Shown: positions 7,651 to 32,000, counted from the first letter of the stretch. The stretch is 32,000 nt of DNA from Erysipelotrichaceae bacterium (GCA_963663995.1 OY760660.1:1620001-1652000); one strand, 5' to 3'. The notes: generated by a model from the sequence alone, not told the origin. A program made the numbers and translations.

Positions 7651-7695
7651 ATTTGTGATGTTAAGTTATTAGTTGTATTATGTGTATGTACAGTG

Positions 7696-7716
7696 CAATG
7701 CATAGTATGTGCATTG
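7696..7716 (+). promoter_or_regulatory. Inverted repeat upstream of the antitoxin gene (candidate autoregulatory operator)
   Basis: CAATGCA (7696-7702) and TGCATTG (7710-7716) are perfect reverse complements separated by 7 nt. The repeat ends 13 nt upstream of the relB/dinJ ATG. Confidence 0.35.
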
Positions 7717-7728
7717 AAAGGAGATAAA

Positions 7729-15544: not shown

Positions 15545-16083
15545 TATTTAATGAGTCCTAACTTTTTCGCATAGAGGAATAAACCACCTGCTCCAATAAT
15601 ATCTTTTGCACTACCTAAATCATTGAGTTGATAAGTTTGTCCACTTGTTAGATTTTTTAAGATGTAGCTGTCAGTATCAATTTCAACTTCATCATCTGTA
15701 TTAAAATCTTCAACGATTCTTACAGGTGTTTCATAAGGTGTAATAAATCCACCATCAACGGAATTACGATAGAAGATACGAGCGTAATCTTCAGCAATAA
15801 CACATTTCACACCCGCCATCGCTAGTGCTAATGGAGCATGTTCACGTGAGGAACCACAACCAAAGTTTTTACCTGTAATCATGACAGAATATTTACTTTC
15901 AAATCCATCACCTTCGATGAAAGGTTGTTTTTGTAGGATTTCTTCAGGTAAACCACTCATCGCATATTTACCGTAAAGTTTTGCTTCTTCACCCTCAACT
16001 TGATAGACAAGGTGTTTAGCAGGAATAATTTGATCGGTATCAATGTTGTCTGGAACAACATAAGCTAAGCCTTTAATAATCAT
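15544..16083 (-). CDS. leuD: 3-isopropylmalate dehydratase small subunit (short, type-2 form)
   Basis: [14 protein letters not shown] and [13 protein letters not shown] motifs; 179 aa. The start overlaps the leuC stop by 1 nt. Confidence 0.9.
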
Positions 16084-17390
16084 TATTTAAGCCCTCCTAA
16101 GAATTCACGAGGATCTGTAATATGACCCGTTAAAGCAGAAGCTGCTGCAGTATATGGAGAAGCTAAGTAAATAGGTGCTTCTTTTGAACCCATACGTCCA
16201 GGGAAGTTACGGTTTGTTGTTGAGATAACAACTTCAGTCGCATGTGTACGTCCAAATGTATCTTCAGGGCCACCTAAACATGCTGCACATGAAGGTAAAC
16301 CAATATCACAACCTGCTTCTTCTAAGATTTGATATAAAGTCTTATCTTTATAAGTAATGTTATGTAAGTTGTCTAAAACTTGTGATGTAGCAGGAACAGC
16401 GAATGTTTGAATAGCTACTTTCTTGCCATAGAGGATTTCACAAGCTGCAAAGAAGTCAGATGTTTTACCACCTGTACAACTTCCAATATACGCGCGAGTT
16501 AGTTCGATATGAGCTAAATCTTTTGCCTTAGCCCCATTCCCTGGTGAGTAAGGTTGAGCAACCATTGGTTCTAAATCTTCAGCATTGTATTCAATAACTG
16601 TGTGATATTTCGCATCTTCATCAGCTGTATAAACTGTAAATGGTTTATTGGATTTGTTAGTAACAAATTCAACCGTTTTACTATCAGCTGGAATTAAGCC
16701 GTTTTTACCACCTGCTTCAATCGCCATATTACAGATCGTCATACGTTCTTCCATATTGAGTGAAGAAATCGCATCACCATCAAATTGCATGGTTCTATAA
16801 GTAGCACCATCAAAGCCGATATCGTTGATAACCGCTAAGACAATGTCTTTACCCATAATATATTTAGGGAGTTTACCATTGAAGGTAAAACGCATAGTTT
16901 CAGGCACTTTTACCCAAAGTTTACCAGTTCCTAAGATATAACCACCATCGGTATTACCAATCCCAGAAGCAAACATTCCGAATGCTCCAGCTGAGCAGGT
17001 ATGTGAATCAGTTCCAAATAGAGTATCACCTGGTAATAAGTGACCTTCCTCCATAATCGCAACGTGACATACACCTTTATAGTTTTCAGTGAATGGTTCG
17101 TAATAGTTGGTTAAGTTTTGATCTAAAGCAAATTGCTTAACATATTCTAAGTTACGAATCGCGTGTACATTTTTTGTGAAGATATAGTGGTCAGGAATTA
17201 AGATAACTTTATCCTTGTCCCATACTTTGGCATCTTCACCAAATTCTCTCTTAAAAATCGAAATTGTCCCAGGACCTGTTACATCATGTGTTAATAAGTT
17301 ATCAACATCAATCCAAACGTTATCGCCTGGTTTAACAGAATCTTTGTGAGCACGATTTGCTAAGATTTTTTCAACAATGGTCATCCCCAT
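16083..17390 (-). CDS. leuC: 3-isopropylmalate dehydratase large subunit (short, type-2 form)
   Basis: GTDSHTCSAGAFG, IGSCTGG and NRNFPGRMG aconitase-family cluster motifs; 435 aa. Confidence 0.9.
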   Translation of the reverse strand: MGMTIVEKILANRAHKDSVKPGDNVWIDVDNLLTHDVTGPGTISIFKREFGEDAKVWDKDKVILIPDHYIFTKNVHAIRNLEYVKQFALDQNLTNYYEPFTENYKGVCHVAIMEEGHLLPGDTLFGTDSHTCSAGAFGMFASGIGNTDGGYILGTGKLWVKVPETMRFTFNGKLPKYIMGKDIVLAVINDIGFDGATYRTMQFDGDAISSLNMEERMTICNMAIEAGGKNGLIPADSKTVEFVTNKSNKPFTVYTADEDAKYHTVIEYNAEDLEPMVAQPYSPGNGAKAKDLAHIELTRAYIGSCTGGKTSDFFAACEILYGKKVAIQTFAVPATSQVLDNLHNITYKDKTLYQILEEAGCDIGLPSCAACLGGPEDTFGRTHATEVVISTTNRNFPGRMGSKEAPIYLASPYTAAASALTGHITDPREFLGGLK

Positions 17391-17392
17391 AC

Positions 17393-18955
17393 TTAGTTGT
17401 TCTCCTTTTTTAATAATTTATATTCTAATGAATCTACCAGTGCAAGTAAACTTGCTTCGATGATATTTGTCGAAACACCCATAGTATTCCACTCATCTTC
17501 TCCATCAGACGTTACTATTGTAACTCGAACGGTCGCATCTGTCGCTTCATTATGGTCTAAAACTCTAACAATATAGTCAGTCAGAATAACATCCTTAATT
17601 TCAGGATAGAATTCTTCTAAAACTAAACGTAAAGCTTTATCCAATGCATTAACAGGTCCATCACCTTCAGCGGAGACTAAGCGTACTTGATCGTTAATTC
17701 TAACCTTAACTGTACACAGAATATCTAAACCTAAAGTTGAGACATCACGTACTTCATAGTAAATGATATCGAAGGACGGATCAAACTTCTGTAGCAGCTT
17801 TTGAATGAGCAATTCAAGGGAAGCGGGGGCATTCTCATATTGATAGCCTTGTTGTTCCATATCCTTGATGGTCTCAATCAATTTCTTAGCTGTTTCAGAT
17901 TCTTTGTCCAAGCTCGGATCGTATTTATTTAAGAGTTCCATAATCGCTCCGCGGCCAGAAACTTCTGAAATAATAATATTTCTTTCATTACCCACCACAT
18001 CAGGTGAGCAATGTTCGAAAGATGAACTTGCTTTTAGGACACCATCGATGTGCATGCCACCTTTGTGGGCAAAAGCATTTTTACCAACATAAGGCATACC
18101 GTTATCTAAGTGAACATTGGCATGTTCAGCAATTTGTCGACATGTATGAGTTAAGTTTTTAAGTTGATCATCACTGATGACTTTAATTCCTTTTTTAACT
18201 TGTAAATTAGCAATGACATTACTAAGGTTGCAGTTACCTGTTCTTTCCCCAAAGCCATTGAGTACACCCTGTACATGAATAGCTCCATTATCGATTCCGG
18301 CATGGGCGTTCGCCACCCCAAAGCCAATATCGTTATGTGTATGGATACCAATTAAAGCATCTGGTAAAGCTGTGCAAACCGCTTTTGTTATTTCAGCCAC
18401 TTCTTCAGGGAAACAACCACCATTTGTTTCACAGAGAACCAAACGTGTTGCGCCAGCATTGTGAGCAGCTTTCAAACATTCAATCGCATATTCCGGATTG
18501 TTTTTGTAACCATCAAAGAAATGTTCAGCATCGAAGAAGACTTCTTTGTCATGTTCGCGTAAGTATTGAATACTATCGGCAATCATCTTTAAGTTTTCAT
18601 CAAGAGTCGTGCGGATAACATCAGTCACATGAAAGTCCCATGACTTACCAAAGATGGTGATGATATCACAGAAAGCATTGGCTAACTTATTTAAGTTATC
18701 ATCATCTTTTGCGCTAATACCTTTACGACGTGTGCTACCAAAGGCAACAATCTTCGCATTTTTAAGGACAGTATTTTCTAAGGCATCAAAGAATTCAATG
18801 TCTTTTGGATTTGAACCAGGATTACCAGCTTCAATATAATCAATCCCTAATTCATCTAATAGATGAACAGTTCTTAATTTATCTCTAAAGCTAAAGGAAA
18901 CATTTCTTGCTTGAGCGCCATCACGTAAGGTTGTGTCAAACAACTCTATCTTCAT
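17393..18955 (-). CDS. cimA: Citramalate synthase-like LeuA-family paralog
   Basis: 520-aa DRE-TIM aldolase (FDTTLRDGAQA, IGIHTHNDIGFGVANA) with a C-terminal LeuA-dimer-type domain. It sits next to a separate canonical leuA. The N-terminal pattern MKIELFDTTLRDGAQARNVSFSFRDKL...IEAGNPGSNPKD is what I recognise from the bacterial citramalate-synthase clade. The assignment is by recognition, not by search. Confidence 0.75.
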   Translation of the reverse strand: MKIELFDTTLRDGAQARNVSFSFRDKLRTVHLLDELGIDYIEAGNPGSNPKDIEFFDALENTVLKNAKIVAFGSTRRKGISAKDDDNLNKLANAFCDIITIFGKSWDFHVTDVIRTTLDENLKMIADSIQYLREHDKEVFFDAEHFFDGYKNNPEYAIECLKAAHNAGATRLVLCETNGGCFPEEVAEITKAVCTALPDALIGIHTHNDIGFGVANAHAGIDNGAIHVQGVLNGFGERTGNCNLSNVIANLQVKKGIKVISDDQLKNLTHTCRQIAEHANVHLDNGMPYVGKNAFAHKGGMHIDGVLKASSSFEHCSPDVVGNERNIIISEVSGRGAIMELLNKYDPSLDKESETAKKLIETIKDMEQQGYQYENAPASLELLIQKLLQKFDPSFDIIYYEVRDVSTLGLDILCTVKVRINDQVRLVSAEGDGPVNALDKALRLVLEEFYPEIKDVILTDYIVRVLDHNEATDATVRVTIVTSDGEDEWNTMGVSTNIIEASLLALVDSLEYKLLKKENN

Positions 18956-20448
18956 GATTGAGTACTTCCAATCGCAAGTAGATAAGCATCTATACTTGCT
19001 TCAACAATATCGCTACTTACAGCTCGTCCATAGTATTGTTTCTTTTCAAACTCGATTGTTATGTCAACTTTTGCGAGTGATTCAACATCATCGGTAACGG
19101 TTGATAATTGATAGGAATGCAGTGGATATTGTCCTTTATAGACTTTAGATATAGCGTTGTATAAAGCATCAACTGATCCAACACCTTTACCTTTTTCTGA
19201 AATAATATCACCATCAATATTTAAACTTATTTCAGCCAGAGATTCATCATTTTCACGTCTAGCGCTATAAGAAATCACTTTTGTTTCAGTTGAAGAATCA
19301 ATGGATCCATTAACGATAACCACTAAATCTTTATCGTGGATTTCTTTCTTCGTATCAGCTAAACGTTTGAATTGTTCAAACATTTGATCAATTCTAGTAT
19401 TGTCGTAACTAATGCCAAGTTTATTGATTCGATCAACAAAGGCATGACGACCTGATAAGGCTCCTAGTACGATTTCATTTTCAGGTAAACCAATCGATTG
19501 AGGACTCATGATTTCATAAGTTTCACGATTGGCTAGTACACCATGTTGATGGATACCAGATTCATGTGAGAAAGCATTCGCTCCCACAATAGCTTTATTC
19601 GGTTGAACATTAATACCAGATAAATATTGAACAAGCTGTGAAGTGTTATAAATTTGTTCAGTAGTAATGTTTGTGTACAAATCAGAATAGTAATCTTTAC
19701 GTGTTTTAAGGGCCATCACAACTTCTTCTAAAGCAACATTTCCAGCTCTTTCACCAATACCATTGATGGAACCTTCAATTTGTGTTGCCCCAGCATGGAC
19801 AGCAGCCAATGAATTCGCTACAGCCATTCCTAAGTCGTTATGACAATGCACTGAAATTTCGACATTTTCTATGCCTTCAACATGTGCGATTAAATATTTC
19901 ATTAAGTCTGCATATTCATTAGGTGTTACATAACCAACGGTATCCGGTACATTTAAGACAGTTGCGCCAGCTTTAATGACTGCACTAAAGATTTCGACTA
20001 AGAAATCACGATCACTACGAGTTGCATCTTCAGCTGAAAATTCAACATCATCACATAGTGTTTTTGCATAAGCAACTGATTCAATCGCTTTCGCTAAAAC
20101 TTGTTCCTTATTCATTTTGAGTTTGAATTCCATATGAATAGGGGACGTTGCTATAAAAACATGAATTCGATGTTTTGGTGCAGCTTTAATGGCTTCATAA
20201 GCTGTATCGATATCCTTTTTAATGGATCTCGCTAATGAACATAAAGTTGATGTCTTGAGGACTTTAGACATTTCGACTAAAGCTTCATAGCTTTTTGGTG
20301 AGGCAATCGCAAATCCACCTTCGATGACATCAACACCGAGTTTTTCTAACTGTAAAGCAATCTTTACTTTATCTTCCGTTGTGAAGTTAACACGAGGTGT
20401 TTGTTCACCATCACGAAGTGTTGTATCAAATAATTTAACTTGTCTCAT
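18952..20448 (-). CDS. leuA: 2-isopropylmalate synthase
   Basis: FDTTLRDGEQTP and VHCHNDLGMAVANSLAAV motifs; 498 aa with a regulatory C-terminal domain. Its TGA overlaps the cimA ATG (ATGA). Confidence 0.9.
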   Translation of the reverse strand: MRQVKLFDTTLRDGEQTPRVNFTTEDKVKIALQLEKLGVDVIEGGFAIASPKSYEALVEMSKVLKTSTLCSLARSIKKDIDTAYEAIKAAPKHRIHVFIATSPIHMEFKLKMNKEQVLAKAIESVAYAKTLCDDVEFSAEDATRSDRDFLVEIFSAVIKAGATVLNVPDTVGYVTPNEYADLMKYLIAHVEGIENVEISVHCHNDLGMAVANSLAAVHAGATQIEGSINGIGERAGNVALEEVVMALKTRKDYYSDLYTNITTEQIYNTSQLVQYLSGINVQPNKAIVGANAFSHESGIHQHGVLANRETYEIMSPQSIGLPENEIVLGALSGRHAFVDRINKLGISYDNTRIDQMFEQFKRLADTKKEIHDKDLVVIVNGSIDSSTETKVISYSARRENDESLAEISLNIDGDIISEKGKGVGSVDALYNAISKVYKGQYPLHSYQLSTVTDDVESLAKVDITIEFEKKQYYGRAVSSDIVEASIDAYLLAIGSTQS

Positions 20449-20457
20449 AAAGCACTC

Positions 20458-20919
20458 CTATTTCAAAAATAAACTGCCAGATTTAACTAATATCACATTT
20501 CCGAGTTTATGTAATTTATCAATGGTCTTTTTAGTGTTATCAATTGAATCAGTAATTTCTAAATAAATCCAATTATGTTTCACACCTAAGAAGGTCGCAT
20601 TAATGTCATTGAATTCTTTTGTATATGAATCTACACTTGTTTGAATACGTACTAAAGTGTGTTGACGACCAAGTTGAATATCTTCAGTAACGTCAGCGAC
20701 TTCAATAATATCTATCAGTTTTTTAAGTAACTTAACCACGTAAGCAACCCGTTCTTGATCATAGAAGAGTTCGATGAAGATTTCTCTCACATTTGGATCT
20801 TCAGTTTCACAAGAAGTTAAGTTATGGACACTGATGTCTCTCGAAAAGAATAAAGCTGTAATACGATTAATCACACCAGCATGATCTTGACATCGTACAG
20901 ATATAACACGTTGTTCCAT
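20458..20919 (-). CDS. ilvN: Acetolactate synthase small (regulatory, ACT-domain) subunit
   Basis: 153 aa. The N-terminal ACT-like pattern VISVRCQDHAGVINRITALFFSRDISVHNLT lies directly after ilvB. Confidence 0.8.
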   Translation of the reverse strand: MEQRVISVRCQDHAGVINRITALFFSRDISVHNLTSCETEDPNVREIFIELFYDQERVAYVVKLLKKLIDIIEVADVTEDIQLGRQHTLVRIQTSVDSYTKEFNDINATFLGVKHNWIYLEITDSIDNTKKTIDKLHKLGNVILVKSGSLFLK

Positions 20920-20921
20920 GA

Positions 20922-22598
20922 TTACTCTCCTCTCACATTATCTAAGGTATCAAATGGGGCAACCATTGGATAAACGTTAGATGTACTATCGACATGTACT
21001 TCAATCAGAGCAGGACCTCTGATTGCTAAAATATCACTAAGTGTTTCAATATCGGCATCCTTTTGAATTGAATAGAAAGGAATGCGATAAGCTTCAGCTA
21101 ATTTATCCCATAAAGGTGAATACTCATATTGAGTTTGTGAGTAGTTTTCTTTATAGAAAATTTCTTGCCACTGACGAACCATACCTAAAGTATTGTTGTC
21201 ATAGATAATAACTTTAATATTTAATTTATGAATATCTAAGAGTGGTAATTCATTAAGGGTCATTTGGAATGAACCATCACCTGTAATTAAAATAATATTG
21301 TTTTCAGGTTTCCCAAAGGCTGCACCAATCGCAGCAGGTAAACCATAACCCATTGTTCCTAAACCACCGCTAGAAACAAACTGACGAGTTTTCTTAGGGT
21401 GAAGATGTAAAGCTGCAAACATTTGATGTTGACCAACATCGGTAACAATGGTTGTATTATCATCAATACATTCATTAATCTTACGGCTAATTTTAATTGG
21501 ATGAAGTTTTGACTTAGAATCAGAGTTTAATTCTTTTTCTTGAGCTTTAACTTCTTTTTTCCACTCAGCAAATTTTGTGTTTTTAATTTCATTTTTTCTA
21601 ATGGATAGTTTCTTTAAGAAATCTTCAGAATCAGAATTAATACATAAAGTAGATTTAACATTCTTATTGTGTTCTGATGCATCAATATCGATATGAATAA
21701 TGTCTTTAGCATTTGGTAAGAAACCATCTACTTTACAAGTGATACGATCATCAAAACGAGAACCAATATTTAAGAGTAAATCACAGTTTTGAGTAGCATA
21801 GTTAGCACTGAATGTACCGTGCATCCCAAGCATTCCTAAATAATTATCATGACCTGCCGGGAAAGCACCTTTACCATGAAGGGTAGAAGTCACTAAGTAA
21901 TCAGTCCCATCAACAAAATCAAATAGGTAATCAGCAGCATGCATAGGAATCGTTACACCATTACCGATTAAAATTAAAGGCTTTTTAGCTCTGTTTAATG
22001 CTTCGATAACTTGGCTAATTTCATCATGATCAGCAGTTGGTAAAACGAATTTATCTTGGATGTGTTTTTCGATTTCAATGTCTCTTAAAATATCATCTGA
22101 GACTTCTTGAGCAAATACGTCTTTTGTTAAGTCTATTAAGACAGGTCCTGGTCGTCCACCTTGCGCAATTAAGAAAGCTTCTTCAACCACTTGAGGAATT
22201 AAAGTTGCATCCTTAATTAAATAATTGTGTTTAGTCACAGGTTGACTTAACCCTACAGTGTTAATTTCTTGGAAAGCATCACGACCTAAAACAGATTGAT
22301 CGACTTGACCAGTAATCGCAATTAAAGGAACTGAGTCTAAGTGAGCATTACCTAAACCAGTAATTAAGTTTGCTGCCCCTGGTCCACTTGTTCCTATACA
22401 CACACCTACTTTGCCAGTAACACGAGCATAGGCGTCAGCCGCATGTGCTGCCCCTTGTTCGTGACGTGTAAGGATATGGTGAATTGGGCTTTCTTCAATT
22501 TCATCATAGAGCTTTATGACTGCTCCACCTGGAATCCCAAAGATTGTATCAACACCTTTTCGTTCCAAACATTCTAGTAATAATCTTGCACCATTCAT
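20922..22598 (-). CDS. ilvB: Acetolactate synthase large (catalytic, ThDP-dependent) subunit
   Basis: MNGARLLLECLERKGVDTIFGIPGGAV N-terminus and the ThDP motif GDGSFQMTLNEL; 558 aa. Confidence 0.9.
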   Translation of the reverse strand: MNGARLLLECLERKGVDTIFGIPGGAVIKLYDEIEESPIHHILTRHEQGAAHAADAYARVTGKVGVCIGTSGPGAANLITGLGNAHLDSVPLIAITGQVDQSVLGRDAFQEINTVGLSQPVTKHNYLIKDATLIPQVVEEAFLIAQGGRPGPVLIDLTKDVFAQEVSDDILRDIEIEKHIQDKFVLPTADHDEISQVIEALNRAKKPLILIGNGVTIPMHAADYLFDFVDGTDYLVTSTLHGKGAFPAGHDNYLGMLGMHGTFSANYATQNCDLLLNIGSRFDDRITCKVDGFLPNAKDIIHIDIDASEHNKNVKSTLCINSDSEDFLKKLSIRKNEIKNTKFAEWKKEVKAQEKELNSDSKSKLHPIKISRKINECIDDNTTIVTDVGQHQMFAALHLHPKKTRQFVSSGGLGTMGYGLPAAIGAAFGKPENNIILITGDGSFQMTLNELPLLDIHKLNIKVIIYDNNTLGMVRQWQEIFYKENYSQTQYEYSPLWDKLAEAYRIPFYSIQKDADIETLSDILAIRGPALIEVHVDSTSNVYPMVAPFDTLDNVRGE

Positions 22599-22811
22599 TT
22601 TTTCATACCTATCCTTAATCTATATAATATTAACAATGAGTATATCATAAATCATCATTCTCAGTGTAATTTTTTTTCATATCGTTTACATATTGTTTCA
22701 TTTGTTTCAGATATAATTTAAACTTTTTTGATGCTCTCTTATATATATAGATAAATAGACTAAGTGGATGACATACTGAATACTTTCAACAGAGATCAAC
22801 TAAAGTTCATG

Positions 22812-22845
22812 AAAATAAAAAAACTTCTAAAAATTTTAGAAGTTT
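22812..22845 (-). terminator. Rho-independent terminator after the degV-family gene
   Basis: AAACTTCTAAAA (22821-22832) pairs with TTTTAGAAGTTT (22834-22845). The A-run on the plus strand becomes a T-run on the minus strand. Confidence 0.7.
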
Positions 22846-22853
22846 ATCATTAA

Positions 22854-23675
22854 TTAATTTTCATCCTTAATAATGAATTGAATTGCTACACAACCAGGAC
22901 CACCTTGTGTAATCATCACTGGACTCAACAACAATGTTTGAATATCAATGCCATCGATCTTCTCTTTAATGGCTTCAACAAACTGTGAAGCAACAGAAGG
23001 GTTATCAGCATGTGAGATATAGACTTTGAACTTTTCGCTCACATTGTTTTTCTTCATATCCTCAATGATTGAGTCAATGGCTTGTTTCCATGAACGAGCA
23101 ACACCAAATTTCTCTAGTTTTTCCATTCCTGGCTTGTGATAAACAATAGGTTTAATTTTGAGTAATCCACTCATTAGGGCTGCTATGGTTGAAAGTCTGC
23201 CATTTCTTTTTAAGAAATCAAAATCTACAGGAATTAAATAAGATTTACAATCTTCTAGTACTTTATCAAGTCTAGCTCTTAATTCACTATGATCTAATTT
23301 ATCGGATAGTCGTGCGGCAAGTTCAACCACATATTGTTGAGTACCTGCCAAAGTCTTCGAATTAAAGATGGTCATATTTGGATAATCAGTTTGTAATCCT
23401 GCAGCACTGACATATGTACTACTTAATCCTGATGTCATCGCAATGTAGAAACCATCTTTATTTTTATCAAAGGTTTCCATCACATCGCCAATGGCTGGTT
23501 GACTTGATTGTGGTATACCACCCGCAATTTCTTCAATATATTTCTTTGTATCTATTTCAAAGTAATCTCGATAGTTCTTTCCATTTATCTCTACTTGTAA
23601 TGGAATAAGATCAACATTTAATTCTTCTGCTCTTTCACGTGAAAGCATTGAACCTGTGTCAGTAATTATTTTCAT
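22854..23675 (-). CDS. DegV-family fatty-acid-binding protein
   Basis: MKIITDTGSMLS N-terminus and overall DegV/EDD-fold pattern. ATG 23675 has GAGG 6 nt upstream; the track's GTG at 23693 is less likely. Confidence 0.9.
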   Translation of the reverse strand: MKIITDTGSMLSRERAEELNVDLIPLQVEINGKNYRDYFEIDTKKYIEEIAGGIPQSSQPAIGDVMETFDKNKDGFYIAMTSGLSSTYVSAAGLQTDYPNMTIFNSKTLAGTQQYVVELAARLSDKLDHSELRARLDKVLEDCKSYLIPVDFDFLKRNGRLSTIAALMSGLLKIKPIVYHKPGMEKLEKFGVARSWKQAIDSIIEDMKKNNVSEKFKVYISHADNPSVASQFVEAIKEKIDGIDIQTLLLSPVMITQGGPGCVAIQFIIKDEN

Positions 23676-23987
23676 ATTTAACCTCGCGTACACTTATTAT
23701 ATACAAATATGCCATTAATTTGTGAATAATTCCTTATTTAAAGATAGTGGCGTATATTTAACTTTCGTAAATGCATTTTAAAAAAAATTGGTAGTCAAAA
23801 CTAAAATTATTACTATGATATAATAATAAAGATTAATTTACTAAAAGTAGTATCCATCAGCGTCTTTGTAAGACTGATTATATTAAAATATATTGTCAAT
23901 GATTATTAATGAAATAATCTCGTGTCTATGTTTACTATATTTAGTTATTGGTTTTGATAAACACACAAAAAATAGATAGGTTAAACG

Positions 23988-24416
23988 ATGAAAAATAAAA
24001 GTGGAATGACATTAGTTGAAATGGTAATCGCAATTGGATTATTAGGTATAATATCAGTCTCAATTTTTCCGTCATTAGTGGTTTTGTCTAAAATGAACTA
24101 TGTATCAAAGGAAAACTTAAGCTCTAATTACATTGCGCAAGATGTAAGTGAAAGATTATATAACTATAGTCAAACAATAGCTGAAGATGATCTAGTGAAT
24201 ACTTTAATAAATAATCAAGGATATTCGTTATCAAGCAATACTGGAAATAGTTATTTTTTGTCTAAGGATGAAGAAGATTTTAAGATTGATTTAGAAATAA
24301 ACTTAAGTGATGCATCAACTCATTTTGTAAAAGTCAATGTGTCTGTATCCTCACTAAATGAAGCGATTGATAATAAGAGCAGTCAAATAGAATCGATATT
24401 GCGTTTTGGTAATTAA
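23988..24416 (+). CDS. Prepilin-type minor pilin (class III signal peptide)
   Basis: MKNKSG/MTLVEMVIAIGLLGIISVSIF: a short basic leader, Gly at -1, Glu at +5 and a ~20-aa hydrophobic helix. It is first in a three-gene cluster with 2-nt and 10-nt gaps. Confidence 0.8.
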   Translation: MKNKSGMTLVEMVIAIGLLGIISVSIFPSLVVLSKMNYVSKENLSSNYIAQDVSERLYNYSQTIAEDDLVNTLINNQGYSLSSNTGNSYFLSKDEEDFKIDLEINLSDASTHFVKVNVSVSSLNEAIDNKSSQIESILRFGN

Positions 24417-24418
24417 AT

Positions 24419-24832
24419 ATGAAAATGGATCGAAAAGGTTTTACCTTAATTGAGTTAGTGATTGTGATCGCAATTGTTGGAATTGTTTCTTTGGGAATTG
24501 TTAACATTGTTTCTTATTCAATGAATATTGTTTCAAAAGAAACCGTAAATATTGATCAGCAGACAGATGTACGTATTGTGCTTGTCAATTTTGAAAAAGA
24601 TTTAAGAAGGTCTAATCAAGAAGTCACTAAAGTAGATGATTGTGTCTATGTAAATAGCATAAGTTATTGTTTGGATAACCACTCACTTACAAGAGATGAT
24701 ATCGTATTAGCAAATAATATTGAAGTCTTTGAAGTTTCAGTTTCTACAACTTTTATTGATATCAATGTAGTATCTATTGCTGATAAGGAGGGGAACACAT
24801 CAGCTGCAGATACACGAATATATTTAAGATAG
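24419..24832 (+). CDS. Prepilin-type minor pilin (PilW/GspJ/ComGF-like)
   Basis: MKMDRKG/FTLIELVIVIAIVGIVSLGIV is the canonical G/FTLIE cleavage-methylation motif, followed by FEKDLRRS. An alternative ATG at 24425 gives a 5-aa leader. Confidence 0.85.
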   Translation: MKMDRKGFTLIELVIVIAIVGIVSLGIVNIVSYSMNIVSKETVNIDQQTDVRIVLVNFEKDLRRSNQEVTKVDDCVYVNSISYCLDNHSLTRDDIVLANNIEVFEVSVSTTFIDINVVSIADKEGNTSAADTRIYLR

Positions 24833-24842
24833 GATAAAGCGT

Positions 24843-26453
24843 ATGAAAACATTAAAAAATAAACAGGGAATGGCACTTTTAACTGTCATGATTATCCTAT
24901 TAGTCATGGTAACCTTATTGGGTGCGTTGCTTATTTCATCAAAAAATAATTTGGACAGATCTATAGATACACAAGAACATACAACGACTTATTATGCATC
25001 TGAAGCAGGTATGACGATGGTCGCTAGTGAATTTGAAGAGAAATTAATTGCTTTGAGTGAACAAAGTCCTTCGCTTAGTGCCAGTGCATTTATGACCGCT
25101 TTAAATTCATATGTAAGTAGTCAAGGCAATCAAGATATTGAATTACAAGAGAATAATGGTGATATTCCAAAAGCGAGTGTAAGCATTGTCTATACAGGGG
25201 TAGAAGATGGATATGAAAGCTTTGAAATCACATCAGTTGGACATTATGGTGGATATGACAGAATTTTAGTGACTCAATATAAATTTGAGTATATTGAAGG
25301 CGAATCATCAACTGCTTTTCAGGTTGATAAAGCTGTAATGGTTAAAGAGAATATTGAATTGTCTGGAAGTGCTGAAGTTACAGGTGCACCAGTGTCTACA
25401 TACCAAACGACAAAAAACACAATTGATCTTCAATGGTCAACAAAAGTTCCTGCAATTGAATTGGATCCTAGTTTATTTAATAGCAATGATGAACTTATAA
25501 AAACTGATATTTTCAATGATTTGAAAAATATCAATAACAAAATAACTGAAGGTGGATTGGATGCAGTTAAACCATTAGCTAATATTTTTGAATTTCCGCC
25601 AATAGTAATGCCTACTTATCCAGATAAATCAACACTCGCAAAACTTCCTGCTTATTCAATAAAACTACCATGGGGAAGTGATTATTTTCAGTTAGTTTAT
25701 AACGATGGACGATTCATCCAAAATAGTTGGAATATAGATGGATCAGTTTATCGAATACCAGATGCAGCTTCGTGGTATTATGTCCCAGAATTTATTATAA
25801 GTGCAGGGAATGACTTTAGCATTGATGTAGGGAATACAGACAAATTCTTAGTTGTTGATAAGCTACAACTTAATGGACAAGTTAGCATTATTGGTGAAGG
25901 TACACTAACAATATTTGTAACCGGTAATACAGAAAAAACAGCAAGCAAATCTGATCAAAGTCGAGTAGAGCTTAACTATACAAGTTCTAATCATGTTGGA
26001 GCGATAGATCATCCTGAGAAGTTTATTGTTTATGTTAATGAAATGTATTATAAATCAGGTAATAAAACATATCCAATAAATATCTCAATTGGTGGATCAG
26101 CTAAATATTATATGTCATTAATGGGTGCGAATTTTAACTATGAGACTGGTGGAAGCGGATCTCTATATGGCTATGTTGTGACCGGTGGTGAAAGTGTAAA
26201 AATTAATGGTGCTGGAACGGTTGATACTACTTTATTTTATGTCCCTAATGCTGAATTTGAGATTGCTGGATCAGGATATATAAATGGGGCAGTTATAGCG
26301 AAAAGTTTTAATGGCACAGGAGCAAGTCGAGTTAATTTTAGTGCTGAAGCTTTTGATAATTTCCCATTTGAAGTGTTAGATCCAATTACAGGTGGTAGTA
26401 CTAGTTCAACACCTTCATTAACAATCATCAAAGGCTCAACTATTGAACAATAG
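24843..26453 (+). CDS. Large PilX/GspK-like modular minor pilin (536 aa, no Glu5)
   Basis: MKTLKNKQG/MALLTVMIILLVMVTLLGALLISS followed by ...YYASEAGMTMV (PilX_N-like). The C-terminal Gly/Ser/Asn-rich strand repeats end in LFYVPNAEFEIAGSGYINGAVIAKSFNGTGASRVNF. AGGA lies 8 nt upstream. Confidence 0.75.
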   Translation: MKTLKNKQGMALLTVMIILLVMVTLLGALLISSKNNLDRSIDTQEHTTTYYASEAGMTMVASEFEEKLIALSEQSPSLSASAFMTALNSYVSSQGNQDIELQENNGDIPKASVSIVYTGVEDGYESFEITSVGHYGGYDRILVTQYKFEYIEGESSTAFQVDKAVMVKENIELSGSAEVTGAPVSTYQTTKNTIDLQWSTKVPAIELDPSLFNSNDELIKTDIFNDLKNINNKITEGGLDAVKPLANIFEFPPIVMPTYPDKSTLAKLPAYSIKLPWGSDYFQLVYNDGRFIQNSWNIDGSVYRIPDAASWYYVPEFIISAGNDFSIDVGNTDKFLVVDKLQLNGQVSIIGEGTLTIFVTGNTEKTASKSDQSRVELNYTSSNHVGAIDHPEKFIVYVNEMYYKSGNKTYPINISIGGSAKYYMSLMGANFNYETGGSGSLYGYVVTGGESVKINGAGTVDTTLFYVPNAEFEIAGSGYINGAVIAKSFNGTGASRVNFSAEAFDNFPFEVLDPITGGSTSSTPSLTIIKGSTIEQ

Positions 26454-26575
26454 TTTGTTTTGAATTATTAATAATTTTCCTTAACATAAGAATTGATTAT
26501 TAATAAACGAATTCACTTAATAAAATAAAGATTATATTAAATGAACTTAATCGATAATAAGCGTATATTAAAGTT

Positions 26576-27160
26576 ATGGAAAACATTAAAGTAACAGCCC
26601 TAATAAACCATTACCCACAATGGTCAGAAGAATTTAAAGTACTAAGATCTTATATCAATACATTTGAATTAAATGAAGAAGTTAAATGGATGCAACCATG
26701 TTTTACAAAAAACAAGAAAAACATCGTTCTATTACATGGCTTTAAAGATTACTGTGCCATTCTATTCTTTAAAGGTGCACTCATTAACGACACACATAAT
26801 AAGCTCATTCAACAAACAGAAAACGTCCAAGCAGGACGTCAGTTAAGATTTAAAACGATGCAAGAAATCTTAGACCAAAAAGAAGTAATTCTCGATTATG
26901 TTAAACAAGAAATCGAAATAGAAGATAAAGGTCTAGAAGTCGAAAAAGTTGAACGTAAACCAATCGAAATACCTGTTGAATTAAAGGAAGTCCTAGACAA
27001 AGATAACTCATATAATGAAGCATTCAATAAACTAACACCAGGTCGTCAAAGAGCATGGATATTGCACATAGCAGATGCGAAACAATCAGCTACTAAGTAT
27101 GCTCGTATAGAGAAAATGAGAGACAAAGTCTATAATGGTAAAGGACCATTGGAGAGATAA
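26576..27160 (+). CDS. YdeI/DUF1801-family protein (YdhG-like N-domain + YdeI/OmpD-associated C-domain)
   Basis: EVKWMQPCFTKNKKNIVLLHGFKDYCAILFFKG (DUF1801 pattern) and PVELKEVLDKDNSYNEAFNKLTPGRQRAWILHIADAKQSATKYARIEKMRDKV (YdeI C-terminal pattern). Confidence 0.75.
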   Translation: MENIKVTALINHYPQWSEEFKVLRSYINTFELNEEVKWMQPCFTKNKKNIVLLHGFKDYCAILFFKGALINDTHNKLIQQTENVQAGRQLRFKTMQEILDQKEVILDYVKQEIEIEDKGLEVEKVERKPIEIPVELKEVLDKDNSYNEAFNKLTPGRQRAWILHIADAKQSATKYARIEKMRDKVYNGKGPLER

Positions 27161-27184
27161 TCACAAAACAAAAAGATGACAAAT

Positions 27185-27220
27185 AAAAACCCACATTCTT
27201 TGAAAGGAATGTGGGTTTTT
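27185..27220 (+). terminator. Rho-independent terminator after the ydeI-like gene
   Basis: CCCACATTC (27190-27198) pairs with GAATGTGGG (27207-27215), flanked by AAAAA and TTTTT, so it is potentially bidirectional. Confidence 0.8.
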
Positions 27221-27232
27221 GAAGCGCTTTAA

Positions 27233-27324
27233 AATATCGTGTGGGCGATTTTAGGGGGGTATTCAAATATCGTGTGGGAACTCTATAAGATATTGTGTGG
27301 GTGGGCTTTAAGGTTTGGTGTGGG
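27233..27324. repeat. Four direct copies of a (A)ATAT(C/T)GTGTGGG-type motif at the left end of the IS
   Basis: AATATCGTGTGGG occurs at 27233-27245 and again at 27266-27278 (identical). GATATTGTGTGGG is at 27289-27301 and the degenerate GGTTTGGTGTGGG at 27312-27324. Copy ends are spaced 33, 23 and 23 nt apart. Confidence 0.6.
27283..27302. repeat. Left terminal inverted repeat of the ISL3-family element
   Basis: CTATAAGATATTGTGTGGGT is the perfect reverse complement of 28738-28757. Confidence 0.7.
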
Positions 27325-27390
27325 AAAATAAAAAACCTTCGTGTTAATTTAGAGTTACGAGCTTTAAAAATAACACGAAGAAGGAATCTA

Positions 27391-28714
27391 ATGATCACAC
27401 AGCCCGATTTTATCACAGCCATGTTTAATGTAGAACTAGATGAAATAGAAACTCTAGATCGTTTAAACTGGACAATACTTTTCATTATCATATTCGACTC
27501 AAACTCACAAAACACACCTGTCAAGTGTGTGGTGCGAATGCCATATCTCATGGAACCAAAGAAAGACTTATTCATCATCCCAATATTATTGGTTTTGATG
27601 GTGTTATTCATTATCACGCTAGGCGTTATATTTGTAAGGATTGTCATCAAACATTTTTCGAAACCAATCCTTTTTCTTATCCAGGTTTTAATAATAGTTA
27701 CGCACTAATGAATCGAGTGATGCAATAGCTCGGAACACTCGATCTTAGTTATAAACGAATCGCGGAAGATAATCGTATTTCTGTAACGACTGTCCAATTA
27801 TATTTAGATAGTCATGTCGCAATCCCACGAACTTCTTTACCAGAGAATCTAGGGATTGATGAATTGCACTCGAAGATGGTTTATCGTGATTCTGCCTATT
27901 TATGTGCGCTTATCGACAATGAGAATAGATATCCTGTTGATATCTTAAATTCTCGTTCTAAAGCTCAATTAAATCGTCATTTCAGCCAGTATTCAAAGGC
28001 TGAAAGAGATAGAGTGAAATATGTGACCATTGATATTTGGGAACCCTATAAAGATGTCGCATTACGTCAAATTAAGAATTGTAGAGTAGCGGTTGATCCT
28101 TTTCATGTGGTCAAGAATCTATCTTTTGCCTTTACTAAAATACGAATCAATATTATGAATCAACACGCTCCTGGTTCAAGTGCGTACTACCTTCTTAAGA
28201 AGTGGCACAAATTACTCGATTTAAAAGAAGTGAACCTAGATAATCTACCTCAATATAATCCTTTGATCATAAATTAACCAAAAGACAAATTCAAGAAATG
28301 ATATTTAGTATCTCTGATAAACTCTTAGATGCTTATAATCTTAAAACAGCTTATCAATTCTTTAATGACACAGCTTCTTATGAAAATGCAGGTCCTTGGT
28401 TAGAGAGTCTTATTTATAAATTTCAAAATTCTGGGATTGTTGAATATGATGAATTTACTCGTATGTTAATTAATTGGAAACCTGAAATTATCAATTCTTT
28501 TCAACGTCCTCATAACGATCGTAAACAATCAAATGCTTTAGCTGAAAATATAAATAGTCACCTAAGAGCTTATATCTCTTTAGTTCGTGGTTCTCAAAAT
28601 TTTACTCGCTTTAGAAAAAGAGTTCTTTATGCGTTAAACTCAAAAATTCACTACGCTATCTCAAATCGAATTACCTCTGATAAACAAAATAAAAACCCAA
28701 AGAAAAAAGAGTAG
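27391..28714 (+). pseudogene. ISL3-family transposase, disrupted
   Basis: AAGGA RBS plus ATG 27391 (MITQPDFITAMFNVELDEIETLDR). The frame switches near 27460-27470 into ...KLDNTFHYHIRLKLTKHTCQVCGANAISHG...RRYICKDCHQTFFE (zf-ISL3). An in-frame TAG lies at 27726-27728. The frame then continues as LGIDELHSK...VTIDIWEPYKD...VAVDPFHVVKNL (DDE_Tnp_ISL3). A second frameshift near 28256-28262 leads into FDHKLTKRQIQEM...NALAENINSHLRAYISLVRGSQNFTRFRKRVLYALN. Confidence 0.8.
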
Positions 28715-28737
28715 AAATTTCAATTTTTCTACTCTTT

Positions 28738-28757
28738 ACCCACACAATATCTTATAG
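28738..28757. repeat. Right terminal inverted repeat of the ISL3-family element
   Basis: ACCCACACAATATCTTATAG, 23 nt after the transposase stop, is the perfect complement of 27283-27302. Confidence 0.7.
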
Positions 28758-28833
28758 CGTGTTTTTTTAAAACCACACGTTATTTTATATTGCTCTTATT
28801 TTGATAAGAAATCCTTTTAAACAAAAAGACTTA

Positions 28834-29178
28834 TTATTCTACAATGTCTTCTGGAGCAAAATCAGGCAAACCGTATGTTTTAGAACCGTAGGTACATGTG
28901 AACACAGTAATCGCACCATCAGCAACAGTTACATCACATTCAGAATCATCTCCATAAGTATAATCATCATCTGTAATGGCTGGGTCAGCTGTTACGTACT
29001 CCATGGCATATTGGCTATACAAAGCTCTTGAGTTAGCTGAATCTTTTGCTTCAGTTGCTCTTGAAATATAATTTGTAATACTTGGAATCAAGATAGCTGC
29101 TAAGATAGCTAAGATAGCGATAACAACGATTAATTCAATAAGCGTAAACCCTTTTTTGTTTTTTAATAATTTTTTCAT
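28834..29178 (-). CDS. Type IV major-type pilin (prepilin, 114 aa)
   Basis: MKKLLKNKKG/FTLIELIVVIAILAILAAILIPSITNYISRA: canonical leader, Gly-1, Phe+1 and Glu+5. Two Cys residues (SECDVTVADGAITVFTC) could form a D-region-like disulfide. A strong GGGAG RBS lies 8 nt upstream. Confidence 0.85.
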   Translation of the reverse strand: MKKLLKNKKGFTLIELIVVIAILAILAAILIPSITNYISRATEAKDSANSRALYSQYAMEYVTADPAITDDDYTYGDDSECDVTVADGAITVFTCTYGSKTYGLPDFAPEDIVE

Positions 29179-29203
29179 AAGTTTTCTCCCTATATTTAAT
29201 TAA

Positions 29204-29232
29204 ATTTTCTATCAATAAATTTGTTATGTCAA
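29204..29232 (-). promoter_or_regulatory. Candidate sigma-A-type promoter for the major pilin gene
   Basis: On the minus strand, TTGACA (29232-29227), a 17-nt spacer and GAAAAT (29209-29204), about 25 nt upstream of the ATG. The -10 matches only 4 of 6 positions. Confidence 0.3.
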
Positions 29233-29337
29233 TGAATAATCGACATTGTGTGAAAAAAGTATACTTTAGTACCATAATATAGATTTATTAGGCAATTATA
29301 TTAAATAAAATTTGCAAAATAAGTGTAAATAATACGA

Positions 29338-29651
29338 TCACTCTTTTATAAAATTGTTGGATGCTCGATAGGTTCCAATGTCCCACGTACAATAGAATGA
29401 AGCGATTCCAGTTGGTGCTTTGAAATTAGAAATTAAGACATAAGCATCATTTTTAGTCGCATCTGCTAAAGCGTATTCAGTGTAGATAACTCTTGTATTT
29501 GCCATGTCTCTTGTTTCTTTAGCTTGATCGATATATCAAGTTACACTAGGTATTAATATACTCGATAGGATTGAGAGAATTGCAATCACTACAATCAATT
29601 CTATAAGGGTAAATCCCTCTTTATTTTTTAAGGTTTTTTTAGGCTTGTCAT
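29338..29651 (-). pseudogene. Pilin paralog with a homopolymer frameshift and an in-frame TGA
   Basis: My minus-strand translation gives ...KKTLKNKEG/FTLIELIVVIAILSILSSILIPSVT*YIDQAKETRDMANTRVIYTEYALADATKNDAYVLISNFKAPTGIASFYCTWDIGTYRASNNFIKE*. The only ATG (29651, MTSLKK) is out of frame across an A7 run (plus-strand T7 at 29634-29640), and one extra A would restore the frame. The in-frame TGA is at 29538-29536, where the intact paralog has Asn. Confidence 0.7.
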
Positions 29652-29689
29652 AGAAACTATTATAGCCTAAATGCACTAGATAGTGTGAA

Positions 29690-30742
29690 TTACATTCCTA
29701 TTAATCTTTGCATTAAACCTGGATCAGATGCGTAAACATAGGCTGTATCTTTATCGATAATTTCTAACTTAACTAAATTGGCTAGACTATGTTCTAAGGT
29801 TGTCATGCCCAATTTTTGTCCTGTTTGAATCACTGAATTAATCTGAACGATTTTGTTTTCACGGATCATGTTTCCAACCGCATCTGTATTAAGTAGTATT
29901 TCATGTGCAGCCACTCGTCCACTTTTATCAGTTTTAGGTAGTAGTGTTTGTGAGACAACGGCTTTTAAACTTGTTGAAAGTTGAGATCTTACTTGATTTT
30001 GTTGATGGGGTTCAAATGAATCAATGACTCTGTTAATTGTTGATGCAGCTGAGGTGGTGTGTAATGTGCCGAAGACTAAGTGTCCTGTTTCAGCAGCTGT
30101 TAAGGCAAGTGCGATACTTTCGTGATCGCGCATTTCACCGACTAAGATGACATCTGGATCTTCACGTAGGGCGGATCTTAATCCATCCTTAAAGCTATGT
30201 ACATCTCGTTCAATTTCACGTTGGTTAATTAAACAATTCTTTTCTTTGTGGATGTATTCGATCGGATCTTCGAGGGTTAATATATGTGCTTTTTCATTGG
30301 TGTTGATATAGTCAATCATAGCGGCTAAAGTTGTTGATTTGCCTGAACCTGTTGGACCTGTAACTATGATGATGCCTTTGTTTGACAAGGATAATGACTT
30401 TAGGACTTCAGGAAGTTTAAGTTCTTCAATGGATGGAATATGATTGTTTAAGAGTCTTATCGCAATTGCGGGAACTTGTTTTTGTCTATAAATGTTTAAA
30501 CGATAACGATTTCCATCTTTATCACTATAGGCAGTATCAATATCATATCCATTTTGGAAGTGTTCAAACTGATCATCCGATGTCATTAATTTTATGAAAT
30601 TCAGTAAATCACTTTGACTTAATACGTTTTCATCCATGATGGTTAAATCACCAACTTGTCGAGTATAGACAGGCTTATTGGCGATTAAATGGATGTCAGA
30701 AGCTTTATTTTTCTGGGCGTAAGCTAAGATTTCTTCTATCAT
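29690..30742 (-). CDS. pilT: Type IV pilus retraction ATPase PilT
   Basis: 350 aa. Walker A GPTGSGKST, Asp/His boxes, and the PilT-type C-terminal block AHEILLNTDAVGNMIRENKIVQI (counterpart of the AIRNLIREGK signature). An AGGAGG RBS is present. Confidence 0.9.
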   Translation of the reverse strand: MIEEILAYAQKNKASDIHLIANKPVYTRQVGDLTIMDENVLSQSDLLNFIKLMTSDDQFEHFQNGYDIDTAYSDKDGNRYRLNIYRQKQVPAIAIRLLNNHIPSIEELKLPEVLKSLSLSNKGIIIVTGPTGSGKSTTLAAMIDYINTNEKAHILTLEDPIEYIHKEKNCLINQREIERDVHSFKDGLRSALREDPDVILVGEMRDHESIALALTAAETGHLVFGTLHTTSAASTINRVIDSFEPHQQNQVRSQLSTSLKAVVSQTLLPKTDKSGRVAAHEILLNTDAVGNMIRENKIVQINSVIQTGQKLGMTTLEHSLANLVKLEIIDKDTAYVYASDPGLMQRLIGM

Positions 30743-30753
30743 TTAAGTCCTCC

Positions 30754-32000
30754 TTAATCAACGGTGTAGAGTAGACGTATGGCTTCATCAATAGTTGTTT
30801 GACCTGCATTGACTAAATCCAATACTTCTTCTCTTAACATTCTCATTTTCTTTTCTGCAGCATAATTTCGTAGTTCTTCCATAGAAGCACCTTTAGAAAC
30901 CATGTCTTGAATTTTCTTATCGACTAACATCATTTCAAAGACCGCTGTACGACCATTATAACCCGTGTTATTGCAGTCAGAACATCCGCGACCATAGGAT
31001 GTTTCCTTTAATTCAGTTGATAGTAACATATTCTCTTCATCCGTAACTTTATGAACGGTTTTACATTTAGGACATACTTTTTTAACTAAACGTTGTGAGA
31101 TGACACATTTAACAGATGATGCGACAAGGAAGGGTTCAACACCCATATCTACTAAACGAACAATCGTTGATAAAGCGTCATTGGTATGGACAGTAGACAA
31201 GACTAAGTGACCAGTGATCGCAGCACGAATTGCAATTTCAGCTGTTTCACCATCACGAATTTCCCCAAGCATAATGATATCTGGGTCTTGACGCAAGATA
31301 GATCTAAGACCTGAGGCAAAGGTTAAACCAGATCTTGGATTGACTTGTACTTGAGTAATCCCATCAAACTTACGTTCAATTGGATCTTCAACTGTGACAA
31401 TCGCTTTTTTCACATCATTAATCTTCGCTAACATGGAATACAAAGTAGTGGTTTTACCAGAACCTGTAGGACCAGTGACTAAAATAATTCCGTGAGGCAA
31501 ACGAACCGCTTTAGAGATAATCTCTTCACTTTGTGGAGATAAGCCTAATGAGGATAGTTTATAAGATATATTTCGATCGGCACCTAATAAACGCAAAACA
31601 AGCTTTTCTCCATAGGGTGTAGGGATAGATGATACACGAATATCGATTTTTAACCCATCGGCCGCAAATTGGAAAGAACCATCTTGAGGAACACGTTTTT
31701 CCGCAATATTCATTCCTGAAATGATTTTAATACGTGAACTGATATGTTGATGTACTTCCGACGTAAAGTCAGTTTGGGCTTGTAAATCACCATCAACCCT
31801 AAAGCGTACATGGGTTGTATGTTCAGCAGGTTCAATATGAATATCTGATGCATTTTGATGATAAGCATCCATGATTAAGTTATTAACCAGTTTTACCACA
31901 GGTGCAGAGTCAATACTTGCAGCTAACGCGTCATCACTCGTTATATGGTTATCGAGATTTAAATCACTTTGAATATCACCTAAGATTTCATCATTTGTAC
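30754..32000 (-). CDS. pilB: Type IV pilus assembly ATPase PilB/GspE family (5'-partial, continues beyond window)
   Basis: The frame stays open to the right window edge (...DSAPVVKLVNNLIMDAYHQNASDIHIEP), so the track's GTG at 31899 is not the start. It has Walker A GPTGSGKTT and the tetracysteine motif CPKC...CSDC typical of GspE/PilB. Confidence 0.9.
   Translation of the reverse strand, partial: TNDEILGDIQSDLNLDNHITSDDALAASIDSAPVVKLVNNLIMDAYHQNASDIHIEPAEHTTHVRFRVDGDLQAQTDFTSEVHQHISSRIKIISGMNIAEKRVPQDGSFQFAADGLKIDIRVSSIPTPYGEKLVLRLLGADRNISYKLSSLGLSPQSEEIISKAVRLPHGIILVTGPTGSGKTTTLYSMLAKINDVKKAIVTVEDPIERKFDGITQVQVNPRSGLTFASGLRSILRQDPDIIMLGEIRDGETAEIAIRAAITGHLVLSTVHTNDALSTIVRLVDMGVEPFLVASSVKCVISQRLVKKVCPKCKTVHKVTDEENMLLSTELKETSYGRGCSDCNNTGYNGRTAVFEMMLVDKKIQDMVSKGASMEELRNYAAEKKMRMLREEVLDLVNAGQTTIDEAIRLLYTVD

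Follow-up and report, generated by a model that had tools for sequence, protein, structure and literature searches.

How do the genes of one type IV pilus (T4P) come to lie on opposite strands, in two groups that run towards each other? The question is raised by positions 23988-32000 of a 32,000-nt stretch of DNA from an Erysipelotrichaceae bacterium (hereafter, the window). Here the plus strand carries three prepilin-like genes, then a ydeI-like gene and then a dead insertion sequence (IS) of the ISL3 family, and on the minus strand lie an intact gene for a 114-aa pilin, a second pilin gene that is now a pseudogene, then pilT, and a pilB gene that is cut by the window end. Our analysis indicates that on the minus strand a canonical type IVa pilus (T4aP) operon of a monoderm, an uncultured Erysipelotrichaceae-like bacterium, probably reaches its 3′ end, and that the three prepilin-like genes of the plus strand are probably an acquired cassette for the pilus tip, of a sequence type (type A) that is normally found at the head of the operon in a distant Erysipelotrichaceae clade.

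The pilus genes on the two strands

The genes that the argument needs are the following.

23988-24416, plus strand: MIN1, minor pilin 1, 142 aa, opening with MKNKSG/MTLVE; N_methyl and TIGR02532 matches; type A
24419-24832, plus strand: MIN2, minor pilin 2, 137 aa, opening with MKMDRKG/FTLIE; N_methyl (35.7 bits) and TIGR02532 matches; type A
24843-26453, plus strand: BIG, large tip-type minor pilin, 536 aa, opening with MKTLKNKQG/MALLT; DUF7305; type A
28834-29178, minus strand: intact pilin, 114-aa precursor; N_methyl 40.3 bits
29338-29676, minus strand: pilin pseudogene, orthologous to the pilin that comes next to pilT in relatives
29690-30742, minus strand: PilT retraction ATPase, 350 aa; TIGR01420 and Protein Data Bank (PDB) matches
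30754-32000, minus strand: PilB/GspE-type extension ATPase; T2SSE 430 bits; GPTGSGKTT and CPKC...CSDC motifs

An ORF map, the sequence itself and family searches returned, at its place, every gene that an earlier, sequence-only reading of this DNA had listed, including the three consecutive prepilin frames of the plus strand (23988-26453), and a six-frame motif scan of the window gave no prepilin genes beyond these. The AT-rich Bacillota source proposed in that reading also agrees with the nearest named relatives, which in PilT searches are, among the matches listed, metagenome-assembled genomes (MAGs) of Erysipelotrichaceae. PilT is 100% identical to one database protein (P0001). A scan of genome contigs for PilT returned none closer than 58% among the matches listed, and no close relative of the variable part of PilB was found in JGI metagenomes.

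The gene order is not an assembly artefact of the window, because a second public assembly of the same strain (L083) shows the same arrangement. It matches window positions 18142-27576 save for four 1-nt insertions (at 18155, 21373, 23117 and 25362, three of them in homopolymer runs), and its contig terminates inside the ISL3 element. The insertions within ilvB, the DegV gene and the 536-aa gene split those three ORFs in L083, and the four are probably long-read errors of that assembly. In the window all three cassette ORFs are intact.

We analysed the two ATPases by profile and structure searches. PilT scores 451.8 bits against TIGR01420 (cut-off 319.1), and its closest solved structures are true PilT proteins (PDB 3JVU, E 1e-96). 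The frame of pilB is open up to nt 32000, with 414 codons visible, so the 5′ end of the gene and the N-terminal domain of its product are cut off by the window; because of this truncation, the scores for TIGR02533 (531 bits) and TIGR02538 (491 bits) both lie under the equivalog cut-offs. The visible part of PilB is 87-91% identical to the full-length 557-aa PilB, with its MshEN domain, of two relatives (L081 and L082), and the ATPase motifs of both PilB and PilT are conserved. The profile searches thus place the two proteins in the T2SSE/PilB and PilT families, as had been proposed from their motifs, and these are the PilB/GspE-family and PilT-family ATPases by which type IVa systems are recognized (PMC6916266).

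The pilins point the same way. MIN1, MIN2, the pseudogene and the gene for the 114-aa pilin each encode G/(F,M)T(L)(I,V)E after a short class III leader, with G at -1 and E at +5, as in the pilins by which monoderm type IVa systems are recognized (PMC6916266), and their N_methyl and TIGR02532 scores exceed the cut-offs of these models; such short T4a-type leaders are shared with monoderm type IVa pili. A 10-aa leader leaves a mature protein of 104 aa from the 114-aa pilin, which was rightly described as intact and provided with a ribosome-binding site (RBS; GGGAG). In L081 and L082 the second pilin is 56-60% identical to it. It can also be aligned almost from end to end with the Thermus thermophilus protein PilA5 (6XXE/8QQJ, E ~7e-6), the major subunit of the narrow pilus of that organism; its N-terminal half aligns with Geobacter-type short pilins. 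Judged from these alignments, it is a candidate major pilin. A promoter-like TTGACA-17-GAAAAT lies upstream of it at 29232-29204. In Clostridioides difficile, pilA1 has a c-di-GMP riboswitch. The window pilin is unlike pilA1 in this respect: an Rfam search of the locus gave no riboswitch or other RNA element at gathering thresholds.

We considered a ComG competence system and rejected it. The locus resembles ComG of Bacilli in its prepilin-type subunits, in having a GspE-family ATPase, and in weak ComGE/ComGF-like N-terminal matches. However, PilT is present and PilMNO are found in all relatives. PilB reaches only 275 bits against the ComGA model NF041000 (cut-off 300), with much higher scores for GspE and PilB models, and the pilins match ComGC, ComGD, ComGE and ComGF with scores far under the cut-offs. 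The earlier argument that a PilT-bearing T4P, and not a ComG-type pseudopilus, is encoded here agrees with all of these scores, as it does with the TIGR01420 and 3JVU matches.

Gene order in relatives and ancestry of the cassette

We compared the locus with four loci of a clade that we call B (L081, L082, L085 and L086), with four of the distant clade A (L001, L084, L108 and L109), and with L083; a further distant relative, L003, was also examined. The relatives share a colinear cluster of 11-12 genes, in the order min1-min2-BIG(DUF7305)-pilC(T2SSF)-pilM-pilN-pilO-pilD(opposite strand)-pilB-pilT, ending in one or two pilin genes. The cluster is found in L001, L084, L109, L081, L082, L085 and L086, and the visible part of L108 agrees with it. 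In clade A, an M18 peptidase gene lies upstream of the cluster where contigs extend far enough. The four clade-B loci all continue past the cluster with ydeI (on the opposite strand), then DegV and ilvB-ilvN-leuA, and the window has these same neighbours. As seen by blastn, window positions 29032-31990 are colinear with the pilin-pilT-pilB part of L082; the cassette and the IS have no counterpart at the corresponding places of L082.

In these clusters pilC follows the BIG gene, pilD lies directly upstream of pilB on the opposite strand, and pilM, pilN and pilO lie upstream of pilB in L001, L003, L081, L082, L084, L085, L086 and L109. This synteny predicts that pilD, pilO, pilN, pilM and pilC follow just beyond nt 32000. 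The sequence-only reading had guessed that pilC, pilD and pilMNO lie upstream of pilB, and the guess fits every relative that we examined.

Several of the related loci are damaged. In L081 an IS3-family element (570-2227) interrupts the second gene for a minor pilin; the large minor pilin of L082 (2536-4113) is split into parts of 75 and 390 aa; and L109 (8596-10916) has lost MIN1, MIN2 and the N-terminal part of BIG, has a split pilC, and has no pilin after pilT.

We then compared the window proteins one by one with those of clade B and of L001 and L084 from clade A.

PilT: 71-86% identical to clade B, 57-58% to clade A (L001 and L084, the two compared)
PilB: 80-91% identical to clade B, 67% to clade A
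BIG: 30-31% identical to clade B, 51-59% to clade A
MIN1: 23-30% identical to clade B, 51-54% to clade A
MIN2: 34-40% identical to clade B, 45-49% to clade A

Thus the motor proteins of the window are nearest to clade B, and the cassette proteins to clade A. Within clade A, L001 and L084 are 58-61% identical in their cassettes, 73% in PilT and 85% in PilB; the window cassette is therefore about as near to that of L084 as the cassette of L001 is. A cassette of another type, type B, heads the operon in four of four clade-B genomes, including L085 and L086, which are outgroups to the window, L081 and L082. Type A heads it in L001, L084 and L108. The orphan position of the cassette is so far unique to the window genome. 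Since the identities are discordant and type B is present in all four clade-B relatives, parsimony argues that the type-A cassette of the window is an acquisition and not a relocated native operon. The cassette is apparently xenologous, going by these identities, whether through horizontal transfer or as an ancient paralogue.

We looked for homology reaching from the cassette into the flanking DNA of clade A and rejected it, as the alignment is confined to the three coding regions, at 62-66% identity. Composition at third codon positions (GC3) was rejected as a test of horizontal transfer, because it was uninformative.

The insertion site, the ISL3 element and the decayed pilin

The features around the cassette are the following.

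23722-23771, no strand: left, degenerate copy of the ancestral ydeI-DegV spacer, keeping the DegV upstream region (spacer alignment with L081, L082 and L086)
26530-26582, no strand: right copy of the same ancestral spacer, continuing into the start of ydeI (spacer alignment)
26576-27160, plus strand: ydeI-like gene with DUF1801 and OmdA, in the same position in L081, L082, L085 and L086
27185-27220, no strand: terminator-like hairpin with runs of A and T on its flanks, where ydeI and the pilin genes converge
27280-28760, plus strand: dead ISL3-family insertion sequence, with Zn_ribbon_ISL3 and DDE_Tnp_ISL3 in fragments

By blastn, window positions 15248-23728 and 26530-27173 are contiguous in L082 (12565/12569), and window 23729-26529 is therefore an insertion of 2.8 kb. 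It sits in the spacer of ~96 bp between the divergent ydeI and DegV genes, and both of its flanks align with the ancestral spacer; a direct repeat (D4) is found at 23750-23771 and 26561-26582. The alignment is suggestive of a target of ~50 bp that was duplicated at insertion, so that both divergent genes keep their upstream regions. We propose that the type-A cassette was inserted into the ydeI-DegV spacer in this way, in which case the convergent layout would be a by-product of insertion beside the 3′ end of the operon.

The ydeI-like gene had been taken to separate the two halves of the locus. It does not hold that role: in clade B it has its ancestral place beside the pilin genes, as a conserved neighbour that is probably not a part of the pilus system. 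We noted that ydeI is 87% identical to that of L086 and 65-68% identical to those of L081 and L082, whereas PilT and PilB, and DegV where compared, are closest to L081 and L082. This mosaic history suggests recombination near the insertion site.

These results bear directly on the earlier view that one locus had been split into two units, that is, that a rearrangement divided the native operon and left its own minor-pilin genes as a separate convergent unit. The two units are indeed adjacent and convergent, the minor-pilin genes are in the same operon in relatives, and the dead IS between the units could have mediated a rearrangement. However, the minor-pilin genes of relatives directly precede pilC, and the window cassette differs in sequence type from those of close relatives, with 23-40% identity to them and 45-59% to the distant clade, the opposite of what is seen for PilT and PilB. 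In addition, the cassette was inserted cleanly into the ydeI-DegV spacer and does not adjoin the IS, which lies on the other side of ydeI. We consider such a split of the native operon very improbable.

The IS, already described as dead in the sequence-only reading, can now be assigned to the ISL3 family. A Zn-ribbon domain and DDE_Tnp_ISL3 lie between terminal inverted repeats (IRs) of 23 nt (27280-27302 and 28738-28760, matching at 22 of 23 positions); the transposase is broken into at least three fragments, one with Zn_ribbon_ISL3 and two with DDE_Tnp_ISL3, and the element is dead because its transposase domains are split over three ORFs. It lies in the convergent spacer, interrupts no gene, and has no counterpart in L081, L082, L085 or L086. 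A target-site duplication of 8 bp is not clear in the flanks (27272-27279 and 28761-28768), where four IR-like copies blur the left terminus. The element would be a separate, later insertion into the terminator spacer. We also observed that these four close copies of an IR-like motif (...AAATATCGTGTGGG), at window 27216-27324, could be subterminal repeats that bind the transposase, or could have been left by repeated insertions; the GTGTGGG/CCCACA core of the motif also forms the hairpin at 27185-27220.

Aligned with the orthologous genes of L081 and L082, the decayed pilin paralogue noticed earlier is seen to be a pseudogene with two lesions. The A7 run at 29634-29640 has lost 1 nt, so that the ATG at 29651 no longer lies in frame, and at 29536-29538 GGA is changed to TGA. 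Because L083 differs from the window by 1-nt insertions, mostly in homopolymers, the frameshift alone could be a sequencing error; the GGA to TGA substitution is less likely to be one. We considered recoding of the TGA and rejected it, since the orthologues have a GGA or GGT glycine codon there and the other genes of the window use normal stops. The pseudogene would then be one of two ancestral tandem pilin genes that has decayed. We also noted a conserved -10-like element, TTAGGCTATAAT, at or just past the end of pilT and upstream of the first pilin (window 29655-29670, L081 and L082), which suggests an internal pilin promoter.

The doubly damaged pseudogene raises the possibility that the whole system is decaying and no longer makes pili, its genes being remnants. 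The dead IS within the locus and the recurrent disruption of genes in related loci are in keeping with this. On the other hand, pilT, the 114-aa pilin gene, the three cassette genes and the visible part of pilB all have intact frames, the ATPase motifs are kept and the IS breaks no gene. The lost pilin, moreover, has an intact paralogue, and Streptococcus sanguinis, the T4P of which is a machine of 10 proteins with tandem pilin genes, needs only one of its two pilins (PMC6916266). A mere relic is thus an unlikely description of the locus.

A different question is whether the acquired cassette is now the only one. The foreign genes may be the sole minor-pilin set of the genome, if the operon head has lost its native type-B set, and in function this would then be a two-unit system. 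The operon-head minor-pilin genes are often damaged in relatives (L081, L082 and L109), and all three cassette ORFs are intact, which suggests selection. We regard such a replacement as possible, although doubtful. In the reading that we prefer, an acquired cassette beside the end of a canonical operon, its product could serve either as an alternative tip, beside the native type-B set, or as a replacement tip.

The large minor pilin and the role of the pilus

We analysed BIG by profile searches and by structure prediction. BIG has a leader with G at -1, and T in place of E at +5, like tip pilins of the GspK/PilX type; it matches Pfam DUF7305 and, weakly, the GspK N-terminus. The family is large, with 798 proteins at E <= 1e-10 in a profile search of 1.84 billion representative proteins, and no mention of DUF7305 was found in the literature searched. 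An AlphaFold2 model built on 14 homologues (mean pLDDT 83) begins with a long helix (7-73), continues with a sheet of four strands (96-151) and a strand-rich region (165-500), and ends with a low-confidence linker and a final strand (525-530). The strand-rich region is predicted to be a β-solenoid of ~340 residues that follows the pilin sheet.

In a Foldseek search of the PDB, the first structure is ComZ of Thermus thermophilus (6QVI, E 2e-7, probability 1.0), followed by ice-binding β-solenoids of the DUF3494 family; an ice-binding relationship has been reported for ComZ itself (PMC6561018). The pilin domain of ComZ is GspK-like and takes up a solenoid ahead of its last strand, and the protein has been argued to fit only at the tip of the fibre (PMC6561018). 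The same solenoid architecture is found in cyanobacterial PilX, for which a role as a tip plug has been proposed (bioRxiv 10.64898/2026.02.12.705559). The order of helix, sheet, solenoid and final strand in the BIG model is consistent with the topology of ComZ, and, at the level of fold only, BIG is predicted to combine a GspK-like domain lacking E5 with a solenoid before the last strand. The model suggests that BIG is a solenoid-bearing pilin of the ComZ/PilX type that caps the pilus tip.

BIG further resembles ComZ and PilX in its size (~500 aa), in the large triangular-type solenoid and short C-terminal strand of the model, and in being encoded beside small partner minor pilins. Unlike ComZ, with which it shares no detectable sequence similarity, it belongs to Pfam family DUF7305, and its host, unlike Thermus and the cyanobacteria, is a monoderm of the Bacillota, with no secretin for a fibre to pass. 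We also noted that, outside Erysipelotrichaceae-like MAGs, the nearest PilT homologues among the matches listed (~50% identity) are mostly from Gastranaerophilales/Melainabacteria, kin of the cyanobacteria, the group with the PilX tip pilins that bear a solenoid.

From established knowledge of T4aP (PMC6916266), the proteins of the locus can be placed in a working order. PilD would cleave the prepilins, PilB would polymerise the 104-aa pilin on PilC and PilMNO, and PilT would retract the fibre. MIN1, MIN2 and BIG would form a GspI/J/K-like priming complex that ends at the fibre tip, where we infer that the solenoid of BIG caps the fibre and supplies a binding surface.

What such a tip binds bears on the role of the pilus. 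DNA uptake for transformation, as opposed to twitching or adhesion, could be the main task of the pilus, or that of the fibres which the cassette primes: the closest solved structure to BIG is a DNA-binding tip pilin of the Thermus competence pilus, and of the two cyanobacterial priming sets with a solenoid PilX, one makes competence pili (bioRxiv 10.64898/2026.02.12.705559). However, the likeness to ComZ is one of fold, with a low TM-score, solenoid tip pilins serve adhesion and motility too (same preprint), and neither comEA nor comEC lies within the window. We hold DNA uptake as the main role to be rather unlikely.

A more far-reaching proposal is that a single PilB/PilT motor serves two interchangeable cassettes, the native type B and the acquired type A, giving two specialised fibres, and that cassettes move between Erysipelotrichaceae lineages independently of the motor genes. 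Several minor-pilin sets beside one T4aP motor have parallels elsewhere. Myxococcus xanthus has three minor-pilin/PilY1 clusters. In cyanobacteria, two alternative minor-pilin sets prime two specialised fibres (bioRxiv 10.64898/2026.02.12.705559). The window locus is like such systems in that a full minor-pilin and tip set lies away from the core machinery and could prime a specialised fibre; it differs from them in that a single set is seen here, which is xenologous and of the type of another clade, and not a lineage-wide paralogue. Two fibres of this kind, if they exist, might serve, for example, DNA capture on the one hand and adhesion or twitching on the other. We put the two-cassette scheme forward as a speculation that is more likely wrong than right. 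Myxococcus xanthus has three minor-pilin/PilY1 clusters.

Several points weigh against the reading in which an acquired type-A cassette sits beside a canonical operon. The nearest known cassette is 66% identical in DNA and no donor is identified. There is no compositional signature of transfer (GC3 of 0.19-0.22 in the cassette and 0.21-0.28 in its neighbours), and the low DNA identity together with this undistinctive GC3 indicates that the donor is unsampled or the event old. No promoter stands out above the AT-rich background upstream of the cassette (31 promoter-like sites, 34 expected). The two spacer copies are only ~60-77% alike. The likeness of BIG to ComZ is at fold level only (TM ~0.22), and a profile of the 14 BIG homologues finds no ComZ chain among PDB sequences at E <= 10. 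Related loci (L081, L082 and L109) often decay and the window has a pseudogene, so the pilus system may be losing function. Finally, PilC, PilD, PilMNO and any native cassette of this genome are only inferred, and both the cassette and the machine are known from their sequences alone.

We compared the locus with the T4P of S. sanguinis, Clostridium perfringens and C. difficile. The parts list is that of S. sanguinis (PMC6916266) with PilT added: a major pilin or a tandem pair of them, a trio of minor pilins that includes a large, modular one, PilD, the platform protein, PilB and PilMNO, and no secretin; of these parts, PilC, PilD and PilMNO are known here from the loci of relatives. In contrast to other monoderm type IVa systems, the minor pilins come first, pilD is on the opposite strand and the pilins come last, an order specific to this lineage, and the window genome has one cassette placed outside the operon. 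In sequence, the minor pilins show no relation to PilA, PilB and PilC of S. sanguinis, and BIG is predicted to bear a β-solenoid where large minor pilins of the S. sanguinis type have a vWA or lectin module.

To our knowledge, monoderm type IV pili have been studied in few species, none of them from the Erysipelotrichaceae. The window locus and its relatives define for this family a compact, conserved T4aP cluster of 11-12 genes. The window system is a monoderm T4aP of a known kind, distinguished by an unusual, apparently xenologous orphan cassette and a predicted tip pilin like ComZ and PilX, and it leaves the understanding of how T4P work unchanged. The model predicts that solenoid-capped tip pilins of the ComZ/PilX type, known from Thermus and cyanobacteria, also occur in monoderm Bacillota, as the uncharacterised DUF7305 proteins. 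As the cassette and the motor genes are of discordant ancestry, our results suggest that the tip and priming module is exchangeable as a unit, which, if true, would be a simple route to altering what a pilus binds.

Two further observations concern the part of the window outside the pilus locus. A RelB antitoxin/YafQ toxin pair lies at 7636-8275. At 1618-3067, an ORF with a GntR-type helix-turn-helix (HTH) domain (1618-2343) overlaps an ORF with a UTRA domain (2303-3067); these are either two tandem paralogues of the GntR family or one duplicated or frameshifted regulator.

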